Source: a virus
Taxonomy: Duplodnaviria > Caudoviricetes
IMG/VR virus record: IMGVR_UViG_3300010352_001405
Span: 1-64,000 of that record
Direction: 5' to 3' (one strand)
DNA: 64,000 nt
In this document: positions 3,195 to 44,294 of the stretch, piece after piece
Position numbering within the stretch: the first letter of the stretch is position 1
Layout: each line of letters starts with the position of its first letter
Translations under genes and position numbers: made by a program
Notes under the pieces: generated by a model
Database searches by the model: none
Seen by the model: only the letters and a program-made list of their open reading frames with translations
Told to the model about the DNA's origin: nothing

Positions 3195-3524
3195 TTGGAC
3201 ATTATTATTGTCCAATTTGTGGAAATAAGTCATAGTATTAAGAATATTGAATTGATTGACAATAAAATATACGGTGATGTAGAAATTTTAAATACTCCAT
3301 GTGGAAAAACTGTTAAATTATTAAATGGAAATTATAGAATGGGATTAAGAGCATCAGGGAGAACTGAAGAAAAAGTAATAAATCGTGGTGAACAAACATT
3401 TTCAGAAATTGATCCTTACTGTGAAGAAAATTGGAATGACGATGATTTTGAAACAGTAAAAAAAATAGAAATATTTAAAATTTATACATGGGATATTATT
3501 CCTCTTCAAAAAACAAATAATTAA
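3195..3524 (+). CDS. Degenerate T4 gp21-like prohead protease domain with DPYCEENW tag
   Basis: ISHSIKNIELIDNKIYGDVEILNTPCGKTVKLL matches the VSH...G...ILxTPxG pattern; the catalytic GVSSRG region reads MGLRASG; 5' end appears frameshifted. Confidence 0.5.
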   Translation: MDIIIVQFVEISHSIKNIELIDNKIYGDVEILNTPCGKTVKLLNGNYRMGLRASGRTEEKVINRGEQTFSEIDPYCEENWNDDDFETVKKIEIFKIYTWDIIPLQKTNN

Positions 3525-3525
3525 A

Positions 3526-3738
3526 ATGAAAAATAAAATAGTAATACTTAGAGACGGAAAAACCACATTAAGAATAATAGATATTATAATTAATAAAGGC
3601 GACACCGAATATTTAGCGATAGACTTTGAAACTACTACTATAACTACAATAAAACCAAAAGACATTTATGATATTTTAAAAATTGAAGGTGATAAACCTC
3701 ATTCAGATAAAAATAACATAATAGAATACGGAATTTAA
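3526..3738 (+). CDS. Hypothetical protein
   Basis: ORF in series with neighbours. Confidence 0.5.
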   Translation: MKNKIVILRDGKTTLRIIDIIINKGDTEYLAIDFETTTITTIKPKDIYDILKIEGDKPHSDKNNIIEYGI

Positions 3739-3765
3739 TATAATAAAATATTAATATATACGTAT

Positions 3766-4251
3766 ATGGTACTTGGACATGAAGATATAGAAATGAATTT
3801 ATCATCATCAAATATAACAATAGAAAATATTGATATATTGAGTTTGAATGAAAATTTCAGAATAATTGAAGAAACATTTTATAAAGTATTTGATCTGAAT
3901 CCGTGTTTAATGGTAATAGGTAAATTGGAAACCGGCGAATTAATTGACGTTAATCAAGCCTTTATAGATATTATTGGTATTCAATCGAAGTATGATGTTA
4001 TAGGGAAAATAACCACAGAAGAAGGTCTTAAAATTTTGAAAAAGAAAGACAGAGATACAATTATTCGCTCTATATATGATGAAGGTGAGGTAAAAAATAT
4101 TTTTGTCAAAATCAAAACGCCTTCCAATAAAAAGTTTAGAGGATTATTTTCGGCAACAATAATTGAAATGAATAATATTAAATGTTTATTAACAATTTGC
4201 CAAATTATTAATAAAAAATGCTTAATGGATTGTATATCTGATTTTTTTTAA
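3766..4251 (+). CDS. Stand-alone PAS domain protein
   Basis: FDLNPCLMVIGKLETGELIDVNQAFIDIIG...DVIGK pattern typical of PAS. Confidence 0.7.
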   Translation: MVLGHEDIEMNLSSSNITIENIDILSLNENFRIIEETFYKVFDLNPCLMVIGKLETGELIDVNQAFIDIIGIQSKYDVIGKITTEEGLKILKKKDRDTIIRSIYDEGEVKNIFVKIKTPSNKKFRGLFSATIIEMNNIKCLLTICQIINKKCLMDCISDFF

Positions 4252-4256
4252 ACATC

Positions 4257-4523
4257 TTGATTAATTTAATATATAAAGACAAAAAATACAATTATACGAT
4301 TATGCAATTACATGACGGACGCAAGATTGTAGATCCTAATAAAAAATCCTATTTTTTTCTTTTTAGATTGTATTTAAAAAGGAATAAAAAGAGAATATTA
4401 AATTTTTTTCTTTTTTTAATGTTGATGATTATTTTGTTCGCTCCGATTTGGAGCGGAAATCTTATTGGAAATTGGATAAAGGATTTTATTGGAACAATAT
4501 TAAATATAATTAAAACAATATAG
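4257..4523 (+). CDS. Hypothetical membrane protein
   Basis: Hydrophobic segment ILNFFLFLMLMIILFAPIW. Confidence 0.5.
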   Translation: MINLIYKDKKYNYTIMQLHDGRKIVDPNKKSYFFLFRLYLKRNKKRILNFFLFLMLMIILFAPIWSGNLIGNWIKDFIGTILNIIKTI

Positions 4524-4539
4524 AATATCTTCAAATTTC

Positions 4540-4809
4540 ATGGTAAAAAAGAAAAACAAAGACGAAAAATTTTATATAGAAGAAATTGGTGTTCTTGATT
4601 GGCTTAAAAGCACGGAAGAATATCAAATACATAGATTTTCAAATAGAATAGAATACAAGAAAAATTATAAATTACATAGAGAAGGAGGTCCAGCTATTGA
4701 ATTTTTTTCAGGCATTGGTAATCAATATTATATAGATGGAGATAAATTATCAGAGGAAAAATATAAAAATTATAATAGAGGAATTTTAATTGATAAAATG
4801 ACGAAATGA
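4540..4809 (+). CDS. LHREDGPA-repeat (MORN-variant-like) protein
   Basis: KLHREGGPAIE...QYYIDG; C-terminal RGILIDKM. Confidence 0.65.
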   Translation: MVKKKNKDEKFYIEEIGVLDWLKSTEEYQIHRFSNRIEYKKNYKLHREGGPAIEFFSGIGNQYYIDGDKLSEEKYKNYNRGILIDKMTK

Positions 4810-5085
4810 TTATTCTTTGTAAATAACACAAAGGGGTTCATTTTTTGTTATTTGTATTATTTTTCTAAAAGCTCCTCTAATATCACCGTGTTCAACTAAA
4901 GGATTTTCTTTATCTATGAGTTTTTTAAGAAGCTTAAGATTTATTTCCCAAGGATCTCCTTTAAATATTATTTTATCTGTTTTGGCATTAAAAATATATT
5001 CAAGGATAAATTGATTCAACTTATCTTGGTTTTCAAAGGATTTGTAAGCTATTTTTTCTTTAAGATTCAATTTCAATTCATGCAT
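4810..5085 (-). CDS. Hypothetical protein
   Basis: ORF track. Confidence 0.5.
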   Translation of the reverse strand: MHELKLNLKEKIAYKSFENQDKLNQFILEYIFNAKTDKIIFKGDPWEINLKLLKKLIDKENPLVEHGDIRGAFRKIIQITKNEPLCVIYKE

Positions 5086-5196
5086 CTTTATTTTGTTATT
5101 TTATTGATTTTTATTTTAAAAGTTTTATTTTTTGAATTATTTTTTTTATATATAGGTATATATTAAAAGTATTTAAGTGAAAATTAATATTTAATA

Positions 5197-6663: not shown

Positions 6664-6683
6664 TCAACAAGAAATACAATAAA

Positions 6684-7298: not shown

Positions 7299-8095
7299 TC
7301 GAAATTTATATTATATTTTTTAATCATTTCCTTTGTAAAATCCACAATTTCATTAATTTCACTGAATTTAAAATTTTTTATGAATATATCTTTTTCTTTT
7401 CTTGTCTGATCTTGAAAATGTATAGATAAGAAAGTATAATTTTCTTGTATTTTATTAAAAATATAAAAACTAAATAATAAATTCTTATTTTCTGTAATTT
7501 TATGTGTAGTTTCATATTTTACCCAACCTTTAGCTGATGAAGACTTTACCCATTTCAATTTATCTTTTTTAGTGTCTTCCATTAATTTTTTAACTAATTG
7601 TCCTTGATTTAAAGGAGGAAGGTATTGCGGTTCAGGCCCTTTATTATAAATACTTTTATAAACTGAAACAAATTTTTTAACTTCATCTTTAGTGTATCTA
7701 TTACTAAAAATAGTTTTAATAACTTTATATATTTTAGAATGTTGTCTTTTATTGCTCTTGTATCTTTCTGATTCTGGTAAATCTTTTCCTCCATTTGGTA
7801 AATATGATAAAGTGTCTTCACGGGGAGTTAAATCCAAATAAGACATATCATATAGCGTTTTCACTTTCTGATCACATATTTGCAATAAATCCTTCGCTAT
7901 TTTATTACCTGTGTCTGCCATTTTTGTTAAAATATATTTAAATCTATCAGACACTATCATTTCCATTCCTGAAGATATTTTTGGCAACACGTATGTCTGG
8001 TTGAATTTTTTTTGATTTTCAGGCCATGCTTTTCCAACTCTATTTTTTTTAGATCGTCTTCTTGATTCATTTATTATTCCATTATAATTACGCAT
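7295..8095 (-). CDS. Hypothetical protein with CTS-like N-terminus
   Basis: MRNYNGIINES. Confidence 0.6.
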   Translation of the reverse strand: MRNYNGIINESRRRSKKNRVGKAWPENQKKFNQTYVLPKISSGMEMIVSDRFKYILTKMADTGNKIAKDLLQICDQKVKTLYDMSYLDLTPREDTLSYLPNGGKDLPESERYKSNKRQHSKIYKVIKTIFSNRYTKDEVKKFVSVYKSIYNKGPEPQYLPPLNQGQLVKKLMEDTKKDKLKWVKSSSAKGWVKYETTHKITENKNLLFSFYIFNKIQENYTFLSIHFQDQTRKEKDIFIKNFKFSEINEIVDFTKEMIKKYNINFE

Positions 8096-8348
8096 ATTCT
8101 TCTCTTAAATCTTCTGGGTGTAAATAATTATAAATATTTTTATTTATTTCTTTAATTTGTTCTTCAAAATGTTTTACTATTCCTGGTATATTATCGTTTT
8201 CAATGAATCTGACATTAAAATTCATATCATCTGTGACTTCTAAAATATTATGATTTAATTCACTCAGTCCTTCATCCCAATCTTCTTCGTTGTAAGGATC
8301 GACATCTTTATGGGATTCTTTAATATATTTATTAAAATGTTTAATCAT
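8088..8348 (-). CDS. Hypothetical protein with CTS-like N-terminus and DPYNEEDW tag
   Basis: MIKHFNKYIKESHKDVDPYNEEDW. Confidence 0.6.
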   Translation of the reverse strand: MIKHFNKYIKESHKDVDPYNEEDWDEGLSELNHNILEVTDDMNFNVRFIENDNIPGIVKHFEEQIKEINKNIYNYLHPEDLREEYA

Positions 8349-8369: not shown

Positions 8370-8732
8370 TTAATTATTAGAAATGATATCGTGTATAATT
8401 AATCGATGTTCTATTATTAATTTATTACTCAATTTTATCATACAGTCGTCGTCGAATTTGATATAATAATCATCATTAAATTTATCAGCTCGATTAAAAA
8501 CAACAAATCTATTTATTATAGATCTGTTATAAAATAAATTTTTCTTTTCATTATATGTTATTTCTGCAATTTTTATTTCTTTTCCTGATAAAACTTTATT
8601 AATTTCATAACAAACCAAATCTTTACTATTTTTCAATAGTTGAAAGAGATGTCTAAGATCCATTTCATTTACAAATAAATTATTTTGCATATTTACTGAT
8701 TCTAACGCAAAGTTATTAAAATTTTTTATCAT
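8370..8732 (-). CDS. Hypothetical protein with CTS-like N-terminus
   Basis: MIKNFNNFALES. Confidence 0.55.
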   Translation of the reverse strand: MIKNFNNFALESVNMQNNLFVNEMDLRHLFQLLKNSKDLVCYEINKVLSGKEIKIAEITYNEKKNLFYNRSIINRFVVFNRADKFNDDYYIKFDDDCMIKLSNKLIIEHRLIIHDIISNN

Positions 8733-8744: not shown

Positions 8745-9740
8745 TTAATAATCCCAGTCTTCCTCACCATAGGGATCAAATTCTTTATATTTTTCAACAT
8801 TTTTTAATCTTTTTCGTTCTTTTTCTAAATATTTTTCTTCGGTTATTACATTTTCTTTATACACATAATAACATCGATCTGGCAAATTTAATTCTGAATA
8901 TTCTTCAGCTGAATGTAATTCATCATTAAATCTATCATCAAATAAAATTAAATAATCATAAACCAAATAATCCGAATTAAATTCATCTTTTGTTAATATT
9001 ATTTTTCCTCTATTGTAACGAAATTCAATTTCATCAACTGTTCCATAAACATAAACTATATCATCTTTTTTTGAATAATTCTCTTTTATAATAAATTTAT
9101 TTATTTTCAAATATTTTTTATATTCTGTTATTATTTTATCAAATAAAATTTCATTATCGAATCTTTTACTGACCATATCATAAACAATATCGTCATTTAT
9201 TTTTATAACAATATTACTATTTACTGATTTATATTCAGCGGTTATAAAATCTTTGTTAATCATAGAAATTTCTAAATATGTATCATAATAAAGATTGTGC
9301 CTACTATGAATTTCTTTATTTATATATCCATATATACTTTTAATTCTTAATGATTTTGAAGATCTTTTTTGAACTATTAATGACATATTATCGATAAGTT
9401 GATTAATTAGAAAATTATTACCTTCAACATTCATCTTAATATCTGTTGTTCCAGATAAAGGATCAATGGATTCTTGTATTTTGCCGTTTTTCCATCGTCT
9501 AAATTCCCCATCAGAATCTTCATCTTTTTTTGAAAACGAATTACCTTGGACGTATAAATTATCTTCAGCCGTCCAAAGCATATACCCATCTGGAAATTCA
9601 ATCCTATAAAGACAGAAATAATCTCTAATATCTACATCTATTACTATTGCTTTATTTGGATTTCTATAAAAACAAACAACATCCCCAATTTTGAATCTAG
9701 GAATAGATTCATTAACGAATGTTAAATAATTTTTCATCAA
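8745..9740 (-). CDS. Multi-module hypothetical protein with CTS-like N-terminus and C-terminal DPYGEEDW
   Basis: MKNYLTFVNES...FKIGDVV...EFDPYGEEDWDY. Confidence 0.6.
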   Translation of the reverse strand: MMKNYLTFVNESIPRFKIGDVVCFYRNPNKAIVIDVDIRDYFCLYRIEFPDGYMLWTAEDNLYVQGNSFSKKDEDSDGEFRRWKNGKIQESIDPLSGTTDIKMNVEGNNFLINQLIDNMSLIVQKRSSKSLRIKSIYGYINKEIHSRHNLYYDTYLEISMINKDFITAEYKSVNSNIVIKINDDIVYDMVSKRFDNEILFDKIITEYKKYLKINKFIIKENYSKKDDIVYVYGTVDEIEFRYNRGKIILTKDEFNSDYLVYDYLILFDDRFNDELHSAEEYSELNLPDRCYYVYKENVITEEKYLEKERKRLKNVEKYKEFDPYGEEDWDY

Positions 9741-12872: not shown

Positions 12873-13955
12873 ATGATTAAAAGATATAATCAATATATTA
12901 AAGAATCAAGAGAAGATATTGATCCTTATGGCGAAGAAATCTGGGAGGAAGTACCTAGAATCATAGAAATCGCTTTGAAACAAGGAAAACCACTAGATAA
13001 AATAACTAAATTAGATTGTTATAATAATCAATTAACTTCATTAGAAGGAATAGAAAAACTAGTTAATTTAAAAGAATTATGGTGTTCTTATAATCAATTA
13101 ACTAGTCTAGAAGGAATAGAAAAACTAGTTAATTTAAAAGAATTATATTGTTCTAATAATCGATTAACATCATTAGAAGGAATAGAAAAACTAGTTAATT
13201 TAGAAATATTATATTGTTTTTATAATCAATTAACTTCATTAGAAGGAATAGAAAAACTAGTCAATTTAAAAACATTATATTGTCATCATAATCGATTAAC
13301 TTCATTAGAAGGAATAGAAAAACTAGTTAATTTAAAAGAATTATATTGTCATCATAATCGATTAACTTCATTAAAAGGAATAGAAAAACTAGTTAATTTA
13401 GAAATATTATATTGTTATAATAATCAATTAACTTCATTAGAAGGAATAGAAAAACTAGTTAATTTAAAAACATTATATTGTCATCATAATCAATTAACTT
13501 CATTAGAAGGAATAGAAAAACTAGTTAATTTAAAAACATTATATTGTCATCATAATCGATTAACTTCATTAAAAGGAATAGAAAAACTAGTCAATTTAGA
13601 AATATTAGATTGTCATTCTAATCGATTAACTTCATTAGAAGGAATAGAAAAACTAGTCAATTTAGAAATATTAGATTGTTATAATAATCAATTAACTTCA
13701 TTAGAAGGAATAGAAAAACTAGTTAATTTAAAAGAATTATGGTGTTCTTATAATCAATTAATTTCATTAGAAGGAATAGAAAAACTAGTTAATTTAAAAA
13801 CGTTATGGTGTTATAATAATCAATTAACTTCATTAGAAGGAATAGAAAAACTAGTTGATTTAAAAATATTAAATTGTTCTAATAATGATTTTTCCAAAGA
13901 ATATATAAAATATCTAAAAGATTATTGTCTAAAAAATAAAATAAAATTAATATGA
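12873..13955 (+). CDS. Leucine-rich repeat protein (13 x 22 aa plus cap)
   Basis: LxxLxCxxNQLTSLEGIEKLVN repeats. Confidence 0.95.
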   Translation: MIKRYNQYIKESREDIDPYGEEIWEEVPRIIEIALKQGKPLDKITKLDCYNNQLTSLEGIEKLVNLKELWCSYNQLTSLEGIEKLVNLKELYCSNNRLTSLEGIEKLVNLEILYCFYNQLTSLEGIEKLVNLKTLYCHHNRLTSLEGIEKLVNLKELYCHHNRLTSLKGIEKLVNLEILYCYNNQLTSLEGIEKLVNLKTLYCHHNQLTSLEGIEKLVNLKTLYCHHNRLTSLKGIEKLVNLEILDCHSNRLTSLEGIEKLVNLEILDCYNNQLTSLEGIEKLVNLKELWCSYNQLISLEGIEKLVNLKTLWCYNNQLTSLEGIEKLVDLKILNCSNNDFSKEYIKYLKDYCLKNKIKLI

Positions 13956-15034
13956 TTAAAAAATATAATCAATATATTAAAGAATCAAGAGAAGATATTG
14001 ATCCTTATGGCGAAGAAATCTGGGAGGAAGTACCTAGAATCATAGAAATCGCTTTTAAACAAGGAAAACCACTGGACAAAATAACTGAATTAAATTGTTC
14101 TAATAATCAATTAACTTCATTAGAAGGAATAGAAAAACTAGTTAATTTAAAAATATTATATTGTTATAATAATCAATTAACTTCATTAGAAGGAATAGAA
14201 AAACTAGTTAATTTAAAAGAATTATATTGTTCTTATAATCAATTAACTAGTCTAGAAGGAATAGAAAAACTAGTTAATTTAAAAGAATTATATTGTTCTA
14301 ATAATCGATTAACATCATTAGAAGGAATAGAAAAACTAGTTGATCTAAAAATATTAAGATGTTCATATAATCAATTAACTTCATTAGAAGGAATAGAAAA
14401 ACTAGTCAATTTAGAAATATTAGATTGTTCTAGTAATCAATTAACTTCATTAGAAGGAATAGAAAAACTAGTTGATCTAAAAATATTAAGTTGTTATAAT
14501 AATCAATTAACTTCATTAGAAGGAATAGAAAAACTAGTCAATTTAGAAATATTAGATTTTTATGATAATCAATTAACTTCACTAGAAGGAATAGAAAAAC
14601 TAGTTAATTTAAAAGAATTAAATTGTTCTAATAATCAATTAACTTCATTAGAAGGAATAGAAAAACTAGTCAATTTAAAAACATTATATTGTCATCATAA
14701 TCGATTAACTTCATTAGAAGGAATAGAAAAACTAGTTAATTTAGAACGATTATATTGTTCTGATAATAAATTAACTTCATTAGAAGGAATAGAAAAACTA
14801 GTTGATCTAAAAATATTAAGTTGTTATAATAATCAATTAACTTCATTAGAAGGAATAGAAAAACTAGTCAATTTAGAAATATTAGATTTTTATAATAATC
14901 AATTAACTTCACTAGAAGGAATAGAAAAACTAGTTAATCTAAAAACATTAAGTTGTTCTAATAATGATTTTTCCAAAGAATATATAAAATATCTAAAAGA
15001 TTATTTAAAAAATAAAATAGAATTATTAATATGA
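13952..15034 (+). CDS. Leucine-rich repeat protein (13 repeats)
   Basis: Same repeat; ATGA overlap with the upstream gene. Confidence 0.95.
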   Translation: MIKKYNQYIKESREDIDPYGEEIWEEVPRIIEIAFKQGKPLDKITELNCSNNQLTSLEGIEKLVNLKILYCYNNQLTSLEGIEKLVNLKELYCSYNQLTSLEGIEKLVNLKELYCSNNRLTSLEGIEKLVDLKILRCSYNQLTSLEGIEKLVNLEILDCSSNQLTSLEGIEKLVDLKILSCYNNQLTSLEGIEKLVNLEILDFYDNQLTSLEGIEKLVNLKELNCSNNQLTSLEGIEKLVNLKTLYCHHNRLTSLEGIEKLVNLERLYCSDNKLTSLEGIEKLVDLKILSCYNNQLTSLEGIEKLVNLEILDFYNNQLTSLEGIEKLVNLKTLSCSNNDFSKEYIKYLKDYLKNKIELLI

Positions 15035-16113
15035 TTAAAAGATATAATCAATATATTAAAGAATCAAGAGAAGATATTGATCCTTATGGCGAAGAAATCT
15101 GGGAGGATGTGCCTAGAATCATAGAAATATCCTTGGAACAAGGAAAACCACTAGATAAAATAACTAAATTAGAATGTTCTAATAATCAATTAACTTCATT
15201 AGAAGGAATAGAAAAACTAGTTAATTTAAAAGAATTATGGTGTTCTTATAATCAATTAACTAGTCTAGAAGGAATAGAAAAACTAGTTAATTTAAAAATA
15301 TTATATTGTTATAATAATCAATTAACTTCATTAGAAGGAATAGAAAAACTAGTTAATTTAGAAATATTATATTGTTTTTATAATCAATTAACTTCATTAG
15401 AAGGAATAGAAAAACTAGTTAATTTAAAAATATTATATTGTTATAATAATCAATTAACTTCATTAGAAGGAATAGAAAAACTAGTCAATTTAGAAATATT
15501 AGATTGTTCTAGTAATCAATTAACATCATTAGAAGGAATAGAAAAACTAGTTAATTTAAAAACATTATATTGTCATCATAATCGATTAACTTCATTAAAA
15601 GGAATAGAAAAACTAGTTAATTTAAAAACATTATATTGTCATCATAATCGATTAACTTCATTAAAAGGAATAGAAAAACTAGTCAATTTAGAAATATTAG
15701 ATTGTTATAATAATCAATTAACTTCATTAGAAGGAATAGAAAAACTAGTCAATTTAAAAACATTATATTGTCATCATAATCGATTAACTTCATTAGAAGG
15801 AATAGAAAAACTAGTTAATTTAAAAATATTAAGTTGTTCTTATAATCAATTAACTTCATTAGAAGGAATAGAAAAACTAGTTAATTTAGAAATATTATAT
15901 TGTTATAATAATCAATTAACTTCATTAAAAGGAATAGAAAAACTAGTCAATTTAAAAACATTATATTGTCATCATAATCGATTAACTTCACTAGAAGGAA
16001 TAGAAAAACTAGTTAATCTAAAAACATTAAGTTGTTCTAATAATGATTTTTCCAAAGAATATATAAAATATTTAAAAAATTATTGTCTAAAAAATAAAAT
16101 AAAATTAATATGA
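15031..16113 (+). CDS. Leucine-rich repeat protein (13 repeats)
   Basis: Same repeat. Confidence 0.95.
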   Translation: MIKRYNQYIKESREDIDPYGEEIWEDVPRIIEISLEQGKPLDKITKLECSNNQLTSLEGIEKLVNLKELWCSYNQLTSLEGIEKLVNLKILYCYNNQLTSLEGIEKLVNLEILYCFYNQLTSLEGIEKLVNLKILYCYNNQLTSLEGIEKLVNLEILDCSSNQLTSLEGIEKLVNLKTLYCHHNRLTSLKGIEKLVNLKTLYCHHNRLTSLKGIEKLVNLEILDCYNNQLTSLEGIEKLVNLKTLYCHHNRLTSLEGIEKLVNLKILSCSYNQLTSLEGIEKLVNLEILYCYNNQLTSLKGIEKLVNLKTLYCHHNRLTSLEGIEKLVNLKTLSCSNNDFSKEYIKYLKNYCLKNKIKLI

Positions 16114-16862
16114 TTAAAAAATATAATCAATATATTAAAGAATCAAGAGAAGATATTGATCCTTATGGCGAAGAAATCTGGGAGGAAGTACCTAGAATCA
16201 TAGAAATCGCTTTTAAACAAGGAAAACCACTGGACAAAATAACTGAATTAAATTGTTCTAATAATCAATTAACTTCATTAGAAGGAATAAAAAAACTAGT
16301 TAATTTAAAATTATTAGATTGTTTTAATAATCAATTAACTTCATTAGAAGGAATAGAAAAACTAGTCAATTTAGAAATATTATATTGTTATAATAATCAA
16401 TTAACTTCATTAGAAGGAATAGAAAAACTAGTTAATTTAAAAGAATTATATTGTTCTGATAATAAATTAACTTCATTAGAAGGAATAGAAAAACTAGTTA
16501 ATTTAGAACGATTATATTGTTCTGATAATAAATTAACTTCATTAGAAGGAATAGAAAAACTAGTTAATTTAGAACGATTATATTGTTCTGATAATAAATT
16601 AACTTCATTAGAAGGAATAGAAAAACTAGTTGATCTAAAAATATTAAGTTGTTATAATAATCAATTAACTTCATTAGAAGGAATAGAAAAACTAGTTAAT
16701 TTAAAAGGATTATGGTGTTATAATAATCAATTAACTTCATTAGAAGGAATAGAAAAACTAGTCAATTTAGAAATATTAGATTGTTATAATAATGATTTTT
16801 CCAAAGAATATTTGGAATATTTAAAAGATTATTGTCTAAAAAATAAAATAAAATTAATATGA
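16110..16862 (+). CDS. Leucine-rich repeat protein (8 repeats)
   Basis: Same repeat; 330 bp shorter, equal to 5 units. Confidence 0.95.
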   Translation: MIKKYNQYIKESREDIDPYGEEIWEEVPRIIEIAFKQGKPLDKITELNCSNNQLTSLEGIKKLVNLKLLDCFNNQLTSLEGIEKLVNLEILYCYNNQLTSLEGIEKLVNLKELYCSDNKLTSLEGIEKLVNLERLYCSDNKLTSLEGIEKLVNLERLYCSDNKLTSLEGIEKLVDLKILSCYNNQLTSLEGIEKLVNLKGLWCYNNQLTSLEGIEKLVNLEILDCYNNDFSKEYLEYLKDYCLKNKIKLI

Positions 16863-22202: not shown

Positions 22203-22709
22203 ATGAGAGTTAGAAGCGGTTTTGTGAGTAATAGTAGTAATTCATCTTTCATAATAATATATCTTCCGGATAATTTTGATCCTGAAGTTTATATCGATTA
22301 TATTAATGAAAAAAATAAAAAAAAGACTTTTCCGAAATCAGTAGTAAATGATTTAAGACAATTAGTTAAGAAAGGACATGTAAATGAACAAAACGATTGT
22401 GAAGATTATTATGAATTATATGATGCTGTTTATAAATTGAATATATTTCAAGGAGAAACTAATGAAGAATGTGGGTATATTCAAGCCGTAAAGAAAAAAT
22501 ATTTTGAAAAGTTGAATAAAATTGATGCTGAATATAATACAGATAAGATGAAACAGGCGACATTAGAAATTAGAGAAAAAAGAGAAAAAATGAAATTGAA
22601 ATATAAACATATAGATCCCTATGGTGAAGAAGATTGGGAGGTAGAAGAATTAAAAATAAAAACATTATATGATTTTATGAACGAATCATTTGAAAAAAAA
22701 TCTAAATAA
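22203..22709 (+). CDS. Phage protein of the MKxRxGFVSNSSSSSF family, with DPYGEEDW tag
   Basis: MRVRSGFVSNSSNSSFII; HIDPYGEEDW; CTS-like IKTLYDFMNES near the C-terminus. Confidence 0.65.
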   Translation: MRVRSGFVSNSSNSSFIIIYLPDNFDPEVYIDYINEKNKKKTFPKSVVNDLRQLVKKGHVNEQNDCEDYYELYDAVYKLNIFQGETNEECGYIQAVKKKYFEKLNKIDAEYNTDKMKQATLEIREKREKMKLKYKHIDPYGEEDWEVEELKIKTLYDFMNESFEKKSK

Positions 22710-27561: not shown

Positions 27562-27957
27562 TTAATTCCAATCCTCTTCACCATAAGGATCTTCTAAAGT
27601 TATTATTTTTTTAGGCTTTAATGAGTCTATTAATTTTTTTTCTGATTCAGTTAAATTGGATAATATTTCTAGTTTATCACAACCATAAATATTAAAAATT
27701 TTTCCTTTTGTGCTTCTTAAAGCCAAGCGTATTGGTTGGTCTTGTTGAAGACTTATTAAAACTGACGCGACTTCAATGTTTTTTAATACTGTTTTATCAC
27801 ATACATGAATATTTATTGACTTTTTATATAATAATCTATCCAATATTCCCTTAGCTTTAACAATATCGTATTTATCATATAACTTATATACGTATATTAC
27901 ATTTTCACCATCTTCAATGTTTTCATTTAATTTATCATAAGTCAAAATATATTTCAT
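27562..27957 (-). CDS. Hypothetical protein with CTS-like N-terminus and C-terminal DPYGEEDW
   Basis: MKYILTYDKLNE...EDPYGEEDWN. Confidence 0.6.
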   Translation of the reverse strand: MKYILTYDKLNENIEDGENVIYVYKLYDKYDIVKAKGILDRLLYKKSINIHVCDKTVLKNIEVASVLISLQQDQPIRLALRSTKGKIFNIYGCDKLEILSNLTESEKKLIDSLKPKKIITLEDPYGEEDWN

Positions 27958-31293: not shown

Positions 31294-31351
31294 TTGGCTG
31301 AAAATTAAAATAAACAAAGAATAAAATAAAATATATATAGAAAAAGAAAAT

Positions 31352-31426
31352 GCTCTCGTCGTCTAATCGGTTAGGACATCGCCTTTTCACGGCGAAGATT
31401 TGCGAGTTCGAGTCTCGTCGAGAGTA
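31352..31426 (+). tRNA. tRNA-Glu(TTC)
   Basis: tcgcc-TTTTCAC-ggcga; full cloverleaf. Confidence 0.9.
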
Positions 31427-31480
31427 CAAAAAAGATTTAGATTATAATCCTTCTAATAATGTAGATTTTAAAAGAATTGA

Positions 31481-32108: not shown

Positions 32109-32753
32109 TTAAGAATTTTTTTTCAAAACACTTAACCATTTTTGATCTATTCTGTTCCAATATTCATGTCCCTCTGGTGTACTCCACCAATATATATAAT
32201 CTATAAATCTTCTTGGTTTGATGTTATTTAAAATTTTCTCAAAATTATCATCGTTGATTTCTTTTCTGAATTGATCATATACATTATCAATATATCTTTT
32301 ATAAATTTTATTGTCTACTAAAAATTTTTTGAACAAAGCATACGGGTCTAATTCATCCCAATTTTCTTCACCGTAAGGATCTATATCTTCATTTTTTTCG
32401 TATATTCTGTTAATTTTTTTCAATTTAATCATCCATTTCACGTTCAATTTGGTCCAATAACTACCACCTTGATTAGTATTTTTCCAATAGAAAGCACCTC
32501 TTATAAACTGTGTTGGATTTGCTTGCGTTAAATATTCATCTATATCGTTCCACCCGTTTGTTTTTAAATTATCTTTGTAATTTTCGAGTGATTTATGTTT
32601 AGTTAGGAAATCTTTAAATTTATTTTCTATATCATCATCATCCCAATTTTCTTCACCGTAAGGATCTACATCAGAATGTTTATTAATTCTTTTTTTTCTA
32701 AAAGGATTCCAATTGAAATCTTCGTTATATGTTTCAAAATTTATAATAATCAT
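32109..32753 (-). CDS. Protein with two tandem homologous domains, each preceded by DPYGEENW
   Basis: DPYGEENW..FKxFL..WxxTxxGxxYWxxxxxKW occurs twice. Confidence 0.7.
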   Translation of the reverse strand: MIIINFETYNEDFNWNPFRKKRINKHSDVDPYGEENWDDDDIENKFKDFLTKHKSLENYKDNLKTNGWNDIDEYLTQANPTQFIRGAFYWKNTNQGGSYWTKLNVKWMIKLKKINRIYEKNEDIDPYGEENWDELDPYALFKKFLVDNKIYKRYIDNVYDQFRKEINDDNFEKILNNIKPRRFIDYIYWWSTPEGHEYWNRIDQKWLSVLKKNS

Positions 32754-34352: not shown

Positions 34353-34967
34353 ATGATAAAGAAATTTAATTTGTTCGAAGAAATTTTTATTAGGCCAAAA
34401 GAAATTGATCCAACAAAACCTAGTATATTATATATCAATGGATCTAGACCATTGCTCAAAGAAGATGGTTCTTTAAATGTAAATAGAAGAAGTCAACTTA
34501 TTTATAATAGATTATCGCAATTTGGAGATAATGTTATCTATCCTTCTGTTTATTGGAAAGGTGGTGAAATGATATTTGATGAGATGATTGAAATTGTTGA
34601 AAATAACAATATTAAAGCGATTGTTGGTAATTCAGCCGGGGGTTATGTATCATTTTATTTATCTAATGGATATAATATTCCGTCTATGTCTATAAATCCA
34701 GCGATGGCATCTACAAGTGAAGCTCCCACATTACAGTCAGTTCCGTCTAATATTAAAAATAGTCCATTGAATTCAAAACAATTGATCGTTATTGGTGATA
34801 AAGATACTAAGGCTGATAGGGGAGTAGATGGTTCTTTGGTTATGAAAGATTTGAAAAATATGGGTTTTGGCGGTGAAATTCTAATTTTAGAAAACACTTA
34901 TCATAGATTAAGTAACGAACAATTTGATGAAACTTTTAAATATTTTTATAAAAAATATATAAGATAA
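34353..34967 (+). CDS. Alpha/beta hydrolase (YqiA/UPF0227-like esterase)
   Basis: GNSAGG nucleophile elbow, INPA, GDKD, H near the C-terminus; CTS-like MIKKFNLFEE. Confidence 0.8.
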   Translation: MIKKFNLFEEIFIRPKEIDPTKPSILYINGSRPLLKEDGSLNVNRRSQLIYNRLSQFGDNVIYPSVYWKGGEMIFDEMIEIVENNNIKAIVGNSAGGYVSFYLSNGYNIPSMSINPAMASTSEAPTLQSVPSNIKNSPLNSKQLIVIGDKDTKADRGVDGSLVMKDLKNMGFGGEILILENTYHRLSNEQFDETFKYFYKKYIR

Positions 34968-34968
34968 T

Positions 34969-35313
34969 ATGGAAAAGACTTTCAATGGATTTCTTAATAT
35001 AAAAAATTCGGATAATGTATTTATAAAAGAGTCAAATTATCCAAGAAGGAATATTTCAGAAGGAGATATGATCGTTGTTACTAAAAAAGGAAAATATTTC
35101 AATCAAACAGGAGTCGTTATATACGTATATGATGAAAATGATAGATCAATATTAGTAAATGATATTGATGTTAAATTAGATTATATCGATAAAGAAATTC
35201 CATTTCAATTCTATGATGTTGAAAAATTAGATGTGATTAAAAGAAATACAGATGTGGACCCTTATGGTGAAGAAGATTGGAGAGAATCACCGTACGAAAA
35301 ATATATAATATAA
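34969..35313 (+). CDS. KOW-like protein with DPYGEEDW tag
   Basis: ISEGDMIVVTKKGKYFNQTGVV. Confidence 0.6.
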   Translation: MEKTFNGFLNIKNSDNVFIKESNYPRRNISEGDMIVVTKKGKYFNQTGVVIYVYDENDRSILVNDIDVKLDYIDKEIPFQFYDVEKLDVIKRNTDVDPYGEEDWRESPYEKYII

Positions 35314-35316: not shown

Positions 35317-36030
35317 ATGATAAAATACAACGATTTTATAAATGAAAATATAATTAAACTAGATGGGCGTCATGGATTTTTTATGTTTCTTAAACTTATT
35401 GACGATTTAAAATTTAATTTTATTAAAACTAATCATTATTTCAATGTTGGAAAATATCTTATTTTTTTTACAACAGAAAATATTAAAAATAAAGATAAAT
35501 TTTATGACTTTTTTAGAGATTGTCTTTCAATTAAAATAACTTGTGATACAGCAATCAATTTAAAAGATAAAAGAATATCATTTTATTTTGGTGTTAAAGA
35601 TAATAAATTAGAATACGGTTTTCAAGACGATTCGAATAGAGATATTTATAAAACAGGTGAGTTTGAAGTTGATTACAAATATGTAAGATCTTTAAGATCA
35701 TATAAATGTTTAGTATTAATTGAAAATTTGCTTAAAAATTTCAATATGAAAAATTTGACTTTATTGCATGAAATCAAATTAAATCTAAAGAATTGGTATG
35801 AAGGAGATGGAAAGATAATTATTATTAGTGATGATGTTTTGAAAAAAACTATAAGTAAAGACATTTTAAAGGAAGAATTAAAAGATGTTAATGGATTATT
35901 GCGTAAGTATGAGAATTGGTGTGAAAAATTTAAATGGGTTAATAAAGTTTTTTATTATATAGATAATGATGATGAAGATAACGTAACTTTTTATATTAAA
36001 ATTAAACCAAAAATGAAAAATGATGAATAA
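35317..36030 (+). CDS. Hypothetical protein, CTS-like N-terminus
   Basis: MIKYNDFINE. Confidence 0.6.
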   Translation: MIKYNDFINENIIKLDGRHGFFMFLKLIDDLKFNFIKTNHYFNVGKYLIFFTTENIKNKDKFYDFFRDCLSIKITCDTAINLKDKRISFYFGVKDNKLEYGFQDDSNRDIYKTGEFEVDYKYVRSLRSYKCLVLIENLLKNFNMKNLTLLHEIKLNLKNWYEGDGKIIIISDDVLKKTISKDILKEELKDVNGLLRKYENWCEKFKWVNKVFYYIDNDDEDNVTFYIKIKPKMKNDE

Positions 36031-36473: not shown

Positions 36474-37160
36474 TTATATTTTTAAATCTTTTATTTTTAA
36501 TGATTTTAAATAATTTTTATATTCTTGGGTGAATCTATTATTAGAACATTTTAAATATCTTAAATTCGTTAAACTTTCAATCCCTTCTAAATTGGTTAAT
36601 TGATTATTAAAACAAATTAATTGTCTTAAATTCGTTAAATTTTCAATTCCGTATAGATCTGTTAATTGATTATTATAGCAATATAACACTTTTAAATCCG
36701 TTAAATGTTCAATTCCTTCTAAACCGATTAATCGATTATGATAACAATGTAAATAACTTAAATTAGTTAATTGTTCAATTCCTTCTAAACTAGTTAATTG
36801 ATTATTAGAACAATGTAAATATCTTAAATTAGTTAAATGTTCAATTCCTTCTAAACTAGTTAATCGATTATAAGAACAATATAATTCTCTTAAATTCGTT
36901 AAATGTTCAATACCATTTAAATTAGTTAATTGATTATTAGAACAATATAATATCTCTAAATTCGTTAAATATTCAATTCCTTCTAAACTAGTTAATCCTT
37001 TATTACAACAATCTAAATATGTTATTTTATCTAATGGTATATTTTGTTTTTTAGCGATAGTTATTATCGGAGTATCATTATCATCGTTCCAGTCTTCTTC
37101 ACCATAAGGATCAATATCTGATATATTTAATTGTTCAAATATTTTAAAATTCTTTATCAT
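36474..37160 (-). CDS. LRR protein, divergent paralog of the 12.8-16.9 kb array
   Basis: LxxLxCxxNQLTSLEGIEHLTN repeats; CTS-like start plus DPYGEEDW. Confidence 0.9.
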   Translation of the reverse strand: MIKNFKIFEQLNISDIDPYGEEDWNDDNDTPIITIAKKQNIPLDKITYLDCCNKGLTSLEGIEYLTNLEILYCSNNQLTNLNGIEHLTNLRELYCSYNRLTSLEGIEHLTNLRYLHCSNNQLTSLEGIEQLTNLSYLHCYHNRLIGLEGIEHLTDLKVLYCYNNQLTDLYGIENLTNLRQLICFNNQLTNLEGIESLTNLRYLKCSNNRFTQEYKNYLKSLKIKDLKI

Positions 37161-37185: not shown

Positions 37186-37563
37186 TTAATCATCCCAATT
37201 TTCTTCACCGTAAGGATCGTATTCCATGTGTTTCAATCTGATCAATTCCATTTTTTCTTTATATTTTCTATATTCATCTTCATCTTCATCATATGGGATT
37301 AATAATTCTTCAAAAATCCAATACCGCGAAATTTTAGCAATTCGGCAATTTTTAAAATCAACTTGATACATTGTTCCTCTTTTCATGATGCGATTTAATT
37401 CACCTATACCACCAGTTAAATTCATACCAATAATAGTTCCATCCCATCCATTCACATCAAACTGATCTTGTCTTCCTTTTTTACAAATCACTCTATCACC
37501 TATATTAAATGAATGATCTTTACTATTTTCTTCTATTTTAATAAATTTATTATAAGTTTTCAT
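37186..37563 (-). CDS. SH3/KOW-like protein with CTS-like start and C-terminal DPYGEENW
   Basis: MKTYNKFIKIEE; FNIGDRVIC. Confidence 0.6.
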   Translation of the reverse strand: MKTYNKFIKIEENSKDHSFNIGDRVICKKGRQDQFDVNGWDGTIIGMNLTGGIGELNRIMKRGTMYQVDFKNCRIAKISRYWIFEELLIPYDEDEDEYRKYKEKMELIRLKHMEYDPYGEENWDD

Positions 37564-37566: not shown

Positions 37567-37959
37567 TTAATCTTCCCATTCTTCTTCACCATAAGGATCT
37601 AAATCTTTATCATATTCTTTTATTTTACGTGGTTCTTTCAAATAAGTAATTACTGTCGAACTAGGATCTACTTCAAATATACTCATTATTTCTTCGTTTT
37701 TATTTTTTATTACAAAAAGTATAGAAAAATAATGATCGAATTGTGTAATTACTTCAATTTTAACAACTAATCCCTTTATTTTATTCTTTGTTTGAAATTG
37801 TTCAAATTCACATAAATTATTTAAAAATAATTTTTTTAATTTTTTTTCAAAACCATTTGTATCGAAATATTCATCATATGAAAAAGAACAACCAATATCA
37901 TTTAATGAATAAATTTCAACAATATTTTCATTTTCAAATAATTTAAATTTTGTTATCAT
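37567..37959 (-). CDS. Hypothetical protein with CTS-like start and C-terminal DPYGEEEW
   Basis: MITKFKLFENE. Confidence 0.6.
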   Translation of the reverse strand: MITKFKLFENENIVEIYSLNDIGCSFSYDEYFDTNGFEKKLKKLFLNNLCEFEQFQTKNKIKGLVVKIEVITQFDHYFSILFVIKNKNEEIMSIFEVDPSSTVITYLKEPRKIKEYDKDLDPYGEEEWED

Positions 37960-40882: not shown

Positions 40883-40938
40883 TTTTTTTTAAACTTATAA
40901 TTTTTTTATAAATATAACCTCTATCAAACTAAAAAAAT

Positions 40939-42108: not shown

Positions 42109-42126
42109 TATTATATATTAATATAT

Positions 42127-42164
42127 AAAAAAATGATAGTTTTATAGACTATCATTTTTTTTAT
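42127..42164. terminator. Likely bidirectional terminator
   Basis: aaaaaatgatagt-tttatag-actatcatttttt. Confidence 0.7.
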
Positions 42165-42214
42165 AGAAATTAATTTGTTAATTTTGCGTGTCATAAAAAA
42201 TAAAATAATCTATA

Positions 42215-42703
42215 ATGAAAGATTTCAAACTATTCGGTGGGGAAGGAATAGATGATCTTGGAGAATATATAAAAGAATATTACGCTCAGTATCAAGATAT
42301 TGAAATATATGTTGGTACTGACTCGGCTCAGCATGGGAAAGTAACTAAGTATGCTACTGCTGTTTCATTATTGCGCCCAGGAAAAGGTGTACATGTTGTT
42401 TATCGTAGAATTACAATTAAACGAGAAAGAGATATGTTTACGCGTTTATGGAATGAAGTTGAAATGACAAGAGAAATTGGTGAATATGTACATGATGTAA
42501 TGAAAGATGTTTATGAAGTCAAAAATAAAAAAAATATAAAAATCCCTATTTTGCATCTAGATTTTAATAAACAACCGAAATATAAATCAAATGTTGTACA
42601 TGACTTATCAATTGGATATCTCAGAGGTTTCGGTTTTGATGTCAGCAGCAAAAACACGAGTTGGTGTGCTACTGTGGCAGCAGATCTTTTAGTTAAAAAT
42701 TGA
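42215..42703 (+). CDS. RNase H-like YkuK (DUF458) family protein
   Basis: IYVGTDS, RLWNEV, LHLD, ATVAAD. Confidence 0.8.
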   Translation: MKDFKLFGGEGIDDLGEYIKEYYAQYQDIEIYVGTDSAQHGKVTKYATAVSLLRPGKGVHVVYRRITIKRERDMFTRLWNEVEMTREIGEYVHDVMKDVYEVKNKKNIKIPILHLDFNKQPKYKSNVVHDLSIGYLRGFGFDVSSKNTSWCATVAADLLVKN

Positions 42704-42742
42704 TAATAAATATAAATTAATTAAACTTAAAAATATTAAAAA

Positions 42743-43058
42743 ATGAAGAAAATAATCTTATTAATGTTATTCACTATTGGTTTTTCAAGCTGTGATCAAT
42801 GGATAGGCGATGCAAAAATTAATAAAAAAATAGAAGATGTTACTGTCTATGAACTTGACGGGTGTGAGTGGCCAGAATGCGTGGGGTGGTCATAAAGGGA
42901 ATTGTAAAAATCCTATTCATAAACAGAAATCTGTAATGAAATTTTATAATTTGGATAGTAAATGTGATAGTGTAATATTTATTGATTCAATTATAAATGA
43001 TAGAAAAACAAAAAGAAATATTGTATATTATAATAATAACAAATTTATAATGCAGTGA
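42743..43058 (+). pseudogene. Frameshifted lipoprotein gene
   Basis: MKKIILLMLFTIGFSSC lipobox and YELDGCE in one frame; GHKGNCKNPIH in another. Confidence 0.55.
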
Positions 43059-43108
43059 AAAGAAGTATATATCAAAAATATTGAAATATTAAAAAAAAAT
43101 TATTAAAC

Positions 43109-43704
43109 ATGACAGATAACATTTTATCAAATGCTCTTAATTATATTAAAAATAATAATAAAGGAGATTCAAATAAATATCATAACAATAAACATATCTT
43201 ATTTGTATTCGAAAATAGCATGATGATTTTCGGTAAATATAGAAAAGAATATGATTTGAAAAAAAGGATGAAATAGAATTAGGACTGGCAGCCATTTTTC
43301 ATGATTTTAATCATTCTGGTGGAAAATTAAAAGATAATGAAAATATAAAAATATCTGTAAACGGTCTTAAAGATTTTTTAAATGAATACAATATAGATAA
43401 AGAAATAGACGAAGAAAAAGTTATCTCCATTCTTGAATCAACTGAGTTTCCTCATAAACAAATGGAACTTAGTATATTACAAAAAATAATCAAAGATGCT
43501 GATACTATGGGGGGAATATCCGATAATTGGTTTGAAATCGTTGTTTCTTTAGCTGCCGAGTTAAATATAAAATTAGCTGAATTCATTCCTATGCAAATTA
43601 AATTTTTGGATAATATTAAATTTAACACTCCTTATTGTAACGAATTATTGAATAAAAGAAGAGATACAATAAAGAAAAAACTTTTAGAAATATTATCTTT
43701 ATAG
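43109..43704 (+). pseudogene. HD-domain phosphohydrolase with a single frameshift in an A7 run at ~43259-43265
   Basis: YHNNKH in the first frame; AAIFHDFNHSG and IIKDAD in the frame of ORF 43462. Confidence 0.7.
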
Positions 43705-44294
43705 TAGTTATATATCATAATATCTTTGATTATAATGAACAGGAACAATGTTCCTTAGATTGGGAGGTGGTGTTTTTTTAAATTCACTACAATCTTTTTT
43801 CTCCCATTTACCTCTACCAGTTTCAGACATTATATACATTTTATCATCGCCCACATCTACAATTTCATATGATTTTCCTTTTTTAAAAACATGAGTTGGT
43901 GGGTAATATCCAACAGTATAATCAACTTGACAGATTAAATAATCACCAATTTTATAATCTTCATCCCATTCTTCTTCGTCATATGGATCTATATTTTTGT
44001 GTTTATTTTCAAATACTTTATATTCTCATATTTTCATTTTCCCAATTTTCTTCACCATATGGATCATCGGGTGTAAAAATTCTAATTGGATCTTTTTTTA
44101 TTTTTTGTAACCACATTCTATCATATATCATTTTAAAACCATTATCAAATTCAACTTCTACTGTATACCCCAAATGATACTTTTGAATATTTAAAATATA
44201 ATTCAGAATCAAAATAGCATAAATTAGTAACATCGTCTCCAACTTTAATTTTATTTCCGTTCATATCTAAACAAGAATCTACATTTTTTATCAT
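43700..44294 (-). pseudogene. Two frameshifted small genes carrying DPYGEENW and DPYDEEEW tags
   Basis: Tags at 44042-44065 and 43966-43989; reading frames broken. Confidence 0.5.

Follow-up and report, generated by a model that had tools for sequence, protein, structure and literature searches.

Why should many otherwise unrelated proteins of a very large bacteriophage carry the same acidic eight-residue peptide on a floppy end or linker? The question is raised by a window of 64,000 nucleotides, the whole stretch of DNA analysed here, taken from a 163-kb viral contig (IMGVR_UViG_3300010352_001405). The preliminary description listed 17 copies of a DPYGEExW tag, on both strands, and the presence and positions of all 17 are confirmed. 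It read the tag as a peptide under selection and as a short docking or address motif, for example for capsid loading; this interpretation is partly supported, as selection on the peptide, portability and flexibility are borne out, whereas the evidence for capsid loading is only circumstantial. About one protein in ten (roughly 9-12%) of a lineage of ~700-kb phages carries the tag, which looks like an undescribed docking label, most likely for loading or holding proteins in the phage head.

Seventeen copies in the window

Six-frame scans find a tag at each of the 17 positions, in frame in open reading frames (ORFs). Fourteen copies are DPYGEE[D/N/E/I]W, and three differ at position 4 (DPYCEENW, DPYNEEDW and DPYDEEEW). 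All 14 exact matches to GAYCCNTAYGGNGARGARNNNTGG lie in a frame open for at least 80 aa in the tag's own frame, while none is open for 45 aa or more in the other two frames. The pattern carries about 34 bits, so that about 1e-5 copies would be expected in 64 kb by calculation. The contig as a whole holds 30 copies, against 0 in ten shuffles.

Six copies sit 16 residues after the start Met, behind a leader of the MIKxYNxYIKE type. Five of these belong to leucine-rich repeat (LRR) genes. The first LRR protein (12873-13955, 360 aa; LRR_4, E 2e-74) has the leader MIKRYNQYIKE and carries DPYGEEIW at residue 17 (12921..12944, +). The same DPYGEEIW is found at residue 17 of three LRR paralogues, at 14000..14023 (+) in 13952-15034 (360 aa), at 15079..15102 (+) in 15031-16113 (360 aa) and at 16158..16181 (+) in 16110-16862 (250 aa). 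The fifth LRR protein (36474-37160, 228 aa) has the leader MIKNFKIFEQ and carries DPYGEEDW at residue 17 (37089..37112, -); in its AlphaFold2 model, residues 1-30 have a pLDDT of 39-62, while the LRR domain is above 95. The sixth copy, the variant DPYNEEDW (8277..8300, -), lies at residue 17 of ORF 8088-8348 (86 aa) after the leader MIKHFNKYIKE; this ORF matches no Pfam or PHROG family. A seventh, the variant DPYDEEEW (43966..43989, -), lies near the N-terminus of the open frame 43711-44025, 12 residues below an in-frame TGA. This frame has no ATG of its own, as ATG AAA ATA TGA precedes it in frame.

Four copies are followed by only one or two residues before the stop. DPYGEEDW at 8754..8777 (-) is followed by two residues in ORF 8745-9737 (330 aa, leader MKNYLTFVNE). 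Homologues of this protein shuffle domains: P0002 keeps the tag, P0003 and P0004 end without it, and the homologue in phage LR756501 (E 2.4e-45) is untagged. DPYGEEDW at 27568..27591 (-) is followed by one residue in ORF 27562-27957 (131 aa), for which searches found no family. DPYGEENW at 37195..37218 (-) is followed by two residues in ORF 37186-37563 (125 aa, leader MKTYNKFIKIEE). The AlphaFold model of this protein shows a disordered leader, a small beta-barrel, a helix at 95-113 and then the tag as coil with a pLDDT of about 55; fold matches to SH3-like barrels are weak. The protein equals one unit of a six-unit domain-plus-tag protein in another stretch, L022. DPYGEEEW at 37576..37599 (-) is followed by two residues in ORF 37567-37959 (130 aa, leader MITKFKLFENE), and the LR756501 orthologue is also tagged. 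Slightly further from the end, DPYGEENW at 44042..44065 (-) is followed by seven residues in ORF 44018-44233 (71 aa), and DPYGEEDW at 35257..35280 (+) by ten in ORF 34969-35313 (114 aa).

The remaining four copies are internal. The variant DPYCEENW (3411..3434, +), with 29 residues following, lies in ORF 3195-3524 (109 aa from TTG), a partial copy of the head maturation protease. This ORF matches phrog_207 (head maturation protease) at E 0.006 and a tagged 178-aa protease-domain protein of LR756501 at E 5.8e-9, and that protein in turn matches the phage's main protease at E 1e-25. DPYGEEDW at 22614..22637 (+) lies 23 residues before the stop of ORF 22203-22709 (168 aa, N-terminus MRVRSGFVSNSS); seven of its eight IMG/VR homologues carry the tag near the C-terminus and one lacks it. 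Two copies of DPYGEENW occur in a single protein, ORF 32109-32753 (214 aa), the first at residue 30 (32643..32666, -) and the second, an internal linker, at residue 125 (32358..32381, -); homologues in LR756501 and IMG/VR are mostly untagged. As the preliminary description stated, no tag lies in the topoisomerase II gene (44455-47736), the chaperonin gene (53516-55153) or the SMC/ABC-type ATPase gene (48961-50658). Its account of the tag as terminal requires qualification, since about 40% of copies in relatives are internal linkers.

Conservation of the peptide within one phage lineage

The tag is restricted to one lineage. The closest complete relative, the 735-kb phage LR756501, holds 103 copies, against 0 for the reversed control pattern, and at least 269 copies occur in 109 IMG/VR stretches. 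Four more distant large phages (LR756504, LR756500, RsoM2USA and XacN1) hold none. In 596 Gb of prokaryote genomes, 72 single hits were found, where about 69 are expected by chance.

Selection acts on the peptide. The tag frame is open at 14/14, 24/24 and 103/103 copies, the last being those of LR756501; frame-independent conservation at the DNA level, which had been named in advance as grounds for rejecting the docking motif, is thus not observed. Residues D, P, E, E and W are invariant across 150 and 86 otherwise unalignable proteins, and every synonymous codon of D, P, Y, G and E is used. The tag is also portable, as orthologous domains occur with and without it and the same leader-plus-tag N-terminal module sits on LRR and non-LRR proteins. 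In both AlphaFold models it lies in low-confidence, flexible segments, as a short linear docking motif would.

Synonymous usage, although varied, is biased: Pro is CCT in 69/102 copies against 34% genome-wide, Tyr is TAC in 77/102 against 35%, and Gly favours GGT (p 1e-5 to 1e-17). This bias raises the possibility that the conserved unit is primarily a DNA element, a recombination joint or small mobile cassette that shuffles gene segments, with the peptide as a by-product. Domains are visibly shuffled at tag boundaries, and junctions of tag, stop, start and leader recur between neighbouring genes; T4-type phages shuffle modules at short conserved sequences. However, a DNA element would fall in all three phases and in spacers, the flanks of unrelated copies are not conserved at the DNA level, and the tag persists across contigs of 23-42% GC. 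Recombination at the tag may well help it spread but cannot explain the amino-acid invariance, which makes this the least likely of the readings considered.

Links to the phage head

Tagged ORFs are enriched for the leader, both in the contig (17/27 vs 32/198, p 7.5e-7), where the paralogous LRR genes inflate the statistics, and in LR756501 (21/87 vs 80/926, p 4e-5). The leader heptad [FY]xx[FY][ILV]xE is also the T4 capsid-targeting sequence (YQEFIAE in MKTYQEFIAE; PMC8442874) and the unit repeated 14 times in the 807-aa protease-scaffold protein of LR756501. Tagged ORFs are similarly enriched for partial copies of portal, protease-scaffold, capsid and sheath proteins (8/87 vs 13/922, p 1.8e-4). 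Contig ORF 95208-95777 and its LR756501 counterpart combine three scaffold repeats with a C-terminal tag, the position where many phage scaffolds carry their coat-binding end. Other carriers look like deliverable effectors, with LRR, SH3-like, Zn-ribbon, deaminase, GNAT, methyltransferase and PRTase domains, which parallels the diverse head-packaged internal proteins of T4 that share only the targeting sequence (PMC3012670).

The reading we favour, although only tentatively, is that DPYGEExW is the invariant core of a portable module of about 20-25 residues, comprising a lysine/arginine-rich, partly helical stretch, then [D/E]-[I/V/L]-DPYGEExW, then one to four acidic residues, and that the window is a fragment of one of the ~700-kb phages. 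The module would act at the protein level as a docking label read by a single, highly conserved phage-encoded partner, most likely a component of the assembling head (the scaffold core or the inner face of the capsid shell), and would thereby load or retain cargo in the virion alongside the T4-type leader. If the leader is trimmed at its I-x-E site as in T4, the tag would stay on the mature protein, a few residues from the new N-terminus or at the C-terminus. The analysis itself demonstrates the peptide-level conservation, the portability, the flexibility, the lineage restriction and the statistical links to head-related features, whereas the binding, the identity of the partner and the head location are inferred. 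As no virion proteomics and no partner or hub were identified, every link to the head is an enrichment, or a similarity to a head protease, and not a demonstration. Moreover, 56-66 of the 87 tagged ORFs of LR756501 (depending on how strictly the leader is defined) and about 10 of the 27 in the contig lack the leader, and if the leader already targets the head, a second head label is partly redundant. Tagged genes in LR756501 are not enriched for the ATATATA upstream motif that marks the head genes and the leader genes (24% vs 22%). Some carriers are not obvious head contents, namely a sheath C-terminal domain and a deaminase/CCA-adding enzyme/HD fusion, and the internal copies are unlike classical terminal targeting peptides.

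The leader, not the tag, is the counterpart of the T4 capsid-targeting sequence of internal proteins IPI-III and Alt, a short peptide shared by otherwise unrelated, rapidly diversifying small proteins that loads them into the scaffold core of the prohead (PMC3012670; PMC8442874). The tag has a different sequence, is never at residue 1, occurs N-terminally, C-terminally and internally, and has no (L/I)-x-E cut site, so it should stay on the mature protein. Encapsulin cargo-loading peptides are likewise short, conserved and placed on a flexible linker at either end of diverse cargo proteins, and dock on the inner face of an HK97-fold shell, the fold of phage capsids. However, they show no sequence similarity to the tag, the cargo genes here are scattered over hundreds of kilobases rather than lying next to the shell gene, many copies are internal, and binding of the tag to the capsid protein is only inferred.

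A quite different link to the head would be cleavage, with the tag serving as a site for the prohead (T4 gp21-type) protease, so that tagged and multi-unit proteins are trimmed or cut into units during head maturation. The lineage has a gp21-family protease fused to a scaffold, tags lie between repeated units in multi-unit proteins (six units in L022) and just behind removable leaders, and the G-E-E of the tag resembles the S/A/G-x-E sites reported for the phiKZ-type protease. However, the T4-type site is (L/I)-x-E, which this phage's own scaffold repeats and leaders keep (YIAE, YIKE) and which the tag core does not fit. Most C-terminal copies leave only 1-3 residues after W, so cutting there would achieve nothing; position 4 tolerates N, D, S and C, which breaks G-x-E; and eight conserved positions exceed what such sites need. 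This reading is therefore very unlikely.

Possible alternative partners of the tag

The window also encodes a tubulin-tyrosine-ligase (TTL) family ATP-grasp enzyme (55478-56791; PF03133, E 1e-22), with homologues in only LR756501 and LR756503 among 50,697 phage records. A homologue is also present in the tag-bearing IMG/VR contig 3300045006_000162 (whose tags are in stretches L028 and L062), while the nearest tagless relative, LR756504, has neither the tag nor a TTL hit. The tag is an exposed Gly-Glu-Glu acidic peptide, often at the C-terminus, and resembles the ...GEE(Y) tail of alpha-tubulin that TTL and TTLL enzymes modify. It may be the recognition element or the acceptor site of this enzyme, which would add glutamate or tyrosine to the invariant EE or to the acidic tail, marking proteins for a post-translational code rather than for a place, or as well as for a place. 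This remains a live rival, although an unlikely one. The co-occurrence amounts to one lineage against its relatives, so any lineage-specific gene would show it, and only about 40% of tags are C-terminal. The last residue of C-terminal copies is E in only 28 of 110 (D in 26, N in 16 and K in 14), which does not fit a strict C-terminal-Glu acceptor, and eight invariant or near-invariant positions including D, P, Y and W are more than known TTL or TTLL substrate tails need.

Alternatively, the tag may be the constant handle and the attached domain the variable binder, analogous to F-box adaptors. LRR, SH3-like and Zn-ribbon modules, and pieces of the phage's own portal, capsid, protease and sheath proteins, would bind their targets, and the tag would recruit to them one common machine, for example a chaperonin, a protease or a modifying enzyme. 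Many carriers are indeed protein-binding modules, many others are partial copies of self-assembling virion proteins that could bind their full-length counterparts, and the tag is joined to the domain by a flexible linker. This model is also unlikely, as the enzyme carriers (deaminase, GNAT, methyltransferase, CCA-adding enzyme) are not binders, no candidate machine is singled out, thirteen untagged fragment copies also exist, and the association with the capsid-targeting leader is not explained. One constant short element grafted on many unrelated payload domains (enzymes, LRR binders), so that a single machine or scaffold can handle all of them, is also seen in the marker motifs of delivered polymorphic effectors (for example, MIX motifs of type VI secretion effectors) and in dockerin-cohesin docking, but these are bacterial secretion or cellulosome systems with folded domains or longer motifs, whereas the element here is an 8-residue linear motif in a virus. 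The tagged fragments of virion proteins are conserved between this contig and LR756501 and resemble each other more than the parent gene (E 1.6e-16 vs 5.6e-6), and are therefore maintained genes, not debris.

Sequence, distribution and codon use of the tag

The 17 copies of the tag reported in the preliminary description are real: six-frame scans recovered a tag at each position. Fourteen of them read DPYGEE[D/N/E/I]W, and the other three differ at position 4 (DPYCEENW at 3411, DPYNEEDW at 8277 and DPYDEEEW at 43966). The window is the first 64 kb of an IMG/VR virus contig (163,324 bp, 25.6% GC, rated 23% complete by CheckV, implying a genome of about 700 kb). The whole contig holds 30 copies, against 0 in ten shuffles, and a reversed control pattern gave 0 matches in the related phage LR756501. 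Chance or low complexity can thus be rejected. The extended consensus comprises a K/R-rich stretch (net charge +1.35 over positions -14 to -3), then [S/K/T]-[D/E]-[I/V/L]-DPYGEE-[D/N/E/I]-W, followed by acidic residues (net charge -1.6 over the next four residues). Two longer forms recur, ...KRVYSE[LM]-DPYGEE... and ...RLKHMDI-DPYGEE...

A pattern scan of IMG/VR returned at least 109 stretches holding at least 269 tags, from contigs of up to 243 kb and 23-42% GC. The closest complete genome is that of the 735-kb uncultured phage LR756501, the largest reported in its study (PMC7162821), whose topoisomerase II is 66% identical to that of the window. It contains 103 exact-pattern copies. An ORF call for this genome gives 87 tagged ORFs of 1013, although such counts are approximate, as they rest on a simple caller (longest ATG frame, greedy removal of overlaps). 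The next relatives by topoisomerase, LR756504 (636 kb), LR756500, RsoM2USA and XacN1, have no copies. Mimicry of a host motif was likewise rejected at the level of the exact pattern: a scan of one genome for each of 185,579 prokaryote species found 72 isolated single matches, whereas a 34-bit pattern is expected, by our arithmetic, to give about 69 in 596 Gb on two strands. The tag is therefore specific to one lineage of huge phages. A literature search for DPYGEE found only unrelated eukaryotic papers, and the 24-residue tag module matches no PDB chain.

Selection acts on the peptide. Every match to the degenerate DNA pattern GAYCCNTAYGGNGARGARNNNTGG lies in a frame open for at least 45 codons in the phase of the tag (14/14 in the window and 24/24 in the contig), while the other two phases are almost always closed, and all 103 copies in LR756501 are in frame. 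All synonymous codons of D, P, Y, G and E occur, the flanking DNA of unrelated copies differs, and D, P, E, E and W are invariant across 150 IMG/VR and 86 LR756501 proteins that are otherwise unalignable. The alternative, that the conserved unit is a DNA element, is poorly supported. However, codon use within the tag is skewed relative to each genome (CCT for Pro, TAC for Tyr in LR756501, GGT for Gly), and the tag DNA starts with GATC when Asp is GAT. The module probably also spreads by copying or recombination, or is under some codon-level constraint.

Placement of the tag and nature of its carriers

Of 102 tags in LR756501, 41 are C-terminal, 18 N-terminal and 43 internal. C-terminal copies usually leave exactly two residues after the Trp (45 of the IMG/VR set), and these are mostly acidic. 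N-terminal copies start 15-17 residues after Met, right behind a leader such as MIKRYNQYIKE. Internal copies lie between domains, as in a six-unit protein (SH3-like barrel, helix, tag) of the IMG/VR locus L022, or in a 1179-aa protein of LR756501 (154866-158402, - strand) that fuses a cytidine-deaminase domain, a DPYGEExW linker and a CCA-adding/poly(A) polymerase head plus HD domain. In the AlphaFold2 model of the LRR protein 36474-37160, built from a 19-sequence alignment, the LRR domain has pLDDT above 95, whereas residues 1-30, which hold leader and tag, have 39-62. Docking of the tag on its own LRR domain therefore finds no support, although this rests on confidence values rather than contacts. 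The model of 37186-37563 shows a disordered leader, a small beta-barrel, a helix at 95-113 and the tag as low-confidence coil. The barrel weakly resembles SH3-like folds (PWWP, KOW-type ribosomal proteins; E about 5e-3), which mildly supports the KOW/SH3-like label of the preliminary description.

The tag is portable. ORF 8745-9737 and its relative P0002 end in the tag, while two further relatives, P0003 and P0004, and the LR756501 homologue share the central domain but have no tag. An apparent clamp-loader homologue of the same ORF, P0005, also carries no tag, but it shares only a 43-residue identical stretch and comes from a 1.4-kb contig, possibly a chimeric assembly. Seven of eight relatives of the FVSNSS protein 22203-22709 are tagged, and the N-terminal module of leader plus tag is found both on LRR proteins and on unrelated small proteins. 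At 44026-44037 (- strand), the gene holding the tag at 43966 reads ATG AAA ATA TGA GAA TAT..., that is, M-K-I-stop-E-Y-K-V-F-E-N: a leader-like start interrupted by TGA (44026-44028) at codon 4 and overlapping the end of the upstream tagged gene. This could reflect a nonsense mutation, a sequencing error, an unusual start or read-through. Recoding of TGA is unlikely, since TGA is otherwise a normal stop here, ending 43 of 224 ORFs.

Most carriers belong to no family, and PHROG scans of the 20 longest tagged IMG/VR proteins gave no named function. Of 150 IMG/VR carriers, 15 are LRR_4 proteins, 2-3 are head maturation protease, 2 are tail-sheath domain and 2 are DnaJ-type zinc fingers, with single hits to TPM, Lar, PRTase and others. 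In LR756501 the carriers also include a GNAT, a methyltransferase and the deaminase/CCA-enzyme fusion. A less expected class comprises small tagged ORFs that are partial copies of the phage's own morphogenetic proteins. In LR756501 these are a 178-aa protease domain (E 1e-25 to the main protease), pieces of the capsid protein (residues 140-220, 518-566 and 80-130), two sheath pieces (1175-1262 and 28-72), a portal piece and a scaffold-repeat protein. Eight of 87 tagged ORFs match portal, protease-scaffold, capsid or sheath proteins, against 13 of 922 untagged ORFs (odds ratio 7, p 1.8e-4). These about 21 small ORFs often lie in tandem arrays (for example at 552-556 kb and 145.6-146.1 kb of LR756501), and the same kind of array occurs at 400-3253 of the IMG/VR locus L091 and at 107852-108696 of the present contig. 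The contig copies are closer to their LR756501 counterparts than to the parent capsid gene and are therefore maintained genes; decoys, assembly regulators or head components are possible roles. In the window, ORF 3195-3524 is such a protease fragment. An adaptor model, in which the tag is a constant handle and the attached domain a variable binder, fits the LRR, SH3-like and virion-fragment carriers but not the enzymes.

Association with the T4-like leader and possible link to the phage head

In LR756501 the head module lies at 72-78 kb and encodes a portal-like 608-aa protein, an 807-aa protease-scaffold fusion (73913-76336) and a 583-aa Gp23-family capsid protein. The scaffold part of the fusion contains 14 tandem 14-residue repeats with the heptad [FY]xx[FY][ILV]xE (YSEYIAE, YNKYIAE and similar). 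This is also the heptad of the T4 capsid targeting sequence MKTYQEFIAE (PMC8442874) and of the N-terminal leaders found here (YNQYIKE, YNKFIKIE). About 12-22% of ORFs start with such a leader (M-I/K-K-x-[FY]-x-x-[FY]-[ILV]-x-E), examples in the window being 8370-8732 (-), 34353-34967 (+), 35317-36030 (+) and 37186-37563 (-). The strict heptad occurs in the first 16 residues of 5-6% of ORFs, against 0.36% of internal windows. Leader-bearing genes share an ATATATA upstream motif with the portal, protease, capsid and sheath genes (46% vs 20%, p 4e-8). The leader is therefore very probably a T4-type head-loading signal.

The tag is associated with the leader both in the contig (17/27 vs 32/198, p 7.5e-7) and in LR756501 (21/87 vs 80/926, p 4e-5). 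However, the ATATATA motif tracks the tag only weakly, and only in this contig, with no enrichment for tagged genes in LR756501, and the T4 late promoter TATAAATA is not enriched upstream of tagged genes. Because the leader ends in I-x-E, trimming as in T4 would leave the tag on the mature protein. Contig ORF 95208-95777 (-) and its LR756501 orthologue 619760-620383 (+) combine three scaffold-type repeats (xYSEYIAE), a collagen-like or Gly-Ser-rich stretch and a C-terminal KRVYS-x-DPYGEEDW tag; many phage scaffolds carry their coat-binding end in that position.

The tag itself does not have the position, sequence or cut site of the T4 capsid targeting sequence. It starts at residue 17 at the earliest in the window and is elsewhere C-terminal or internal, rather than lying within the first ten residues or so from Met1, and its core has neither the heptad nor the gp21 cleavage site (L/I)-x-E, both of which fit the separate leaders (MKTYNKFIKIEE, MIKRYNQYIKE) and the 14 scaffold repeats of LR756501. 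A role as a cleavage site for the prohead protease (gp21/S77) is similarly poorly supported, as P3 of either Glu is Tyr or Gly and the consensus before the tag is [D/E]-[I/V/L]-D. Encapsulin cargo-loading peptides are short conserved peptides on a flexible linker at a terminus of the cargo; the tag lies in segments predicted to be flexible (pLDDT 39-62), at a terminus in about 60% of copies, while about 40% are internal. However, it cannot be classed with these peptides, since encapsulin cargo genes lie next to the shell gene, whereas the tags are spread over the whole 735 kb of LR756501 with the capsid gene at 76-78 kb, and any binding to a pocket on the inner face of the HK97-fold shell protein is conjectural.

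Possible functions

The tag satisfies the general definition of a docking short linear motif of 3-10 conserved residues, being a short conserved element in predicted disordered regions, conserved independently of the flanking domains and gained and lost between homologues. The interpretation in the preliminary description is partly supported. The peptide-level conservation, portability, predicted flexibility and lineage restriction, together with the statistical links to head-related features, are shown, whereas binding, the partner, loading into the prohead and location in the head are inferred. A label for docking or retention in the head is ranked first, but only tentatively; it would act like an encapsulin cargo peptide or as a second address beside the T4-type leader, and the tag would be related to portable targeting or docking peptides of capsid-like compartments. 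This reading is weakened by the many tagged proteins that lack the leader, the absence of late-motif enrichment in LR756501 and carriers that would be odd head contents, such as a sheath domain or a tRNA enzyme fusion.

The main rival, itself of low likelihood, is that the tag is read by the tubulin-tyrosine-ligase (TTL) family enzyme (PF03133, E 1e-22) predicted at 55478-56791 (+), next to the chaperonin gene 53516-55153. Among 50,697 phage records, homologues of this gene are found only in LR756501/3 (54% identity), with one more in a tag-bearing IMG/VR contig. Gene and tag are both present in this contig, LR756501/3 and that IMG/VR contig and both absent from LR756504 and other phages, although this co-occurrence is a single lineage contrast. 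The invariant EE followed by acidic residues, in a segment that is flexible in both models, matches the exposed glutamate-rich tails modified by TTL/TTLL-family ligases. However, only 41 of 102 copies in LR756501 are C-terminal, and the last residue is Glu in only 28 of 110 C-terminal copies, in contrast to the C-terminal Glu of TTL-type substrates. No paper linking TTL and huge phages was found. In the most far-reaching, and unlikely, form of this idea, the enzyme would glutamylate or tyrosinate the invariant EE on about a hundred proteins, thereby controlling whether they are held in, or released from, the giant head: a tubulin-code-like system in a bacterial virus that has no tubulin.

The largest known phages (about 700 kb) have almost no experimentally characterized biology, and a single conserved octapeptide on roughly a tenth of their proteins offers a direct handle on it, as a synthetic peptide could retrieve its partner and a reporter fusion could show where these proteins go. 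The list of tagged proteins (LRR binders, deaminase, acetyl- and methyltransferases, copies of virion-protein domains) would become a catalogue of one functional class, possibly the cargo delivered into the host. If the tag is a head-loading or retention label that survives maturation, it would be a second address code beside the T4-type leader and could be used to load foreign proteins into capsids. If instead it is read by the TTL-like enzyme, it would reveal a new kind of protein modification system in viruses of bacteria. At the nucleotide level, the only match to LR756501 in a 24-kb query from the window is an 83-bp stretch at 31348-31430 with 94% identity, probably a tRNA or other small RNA gene.
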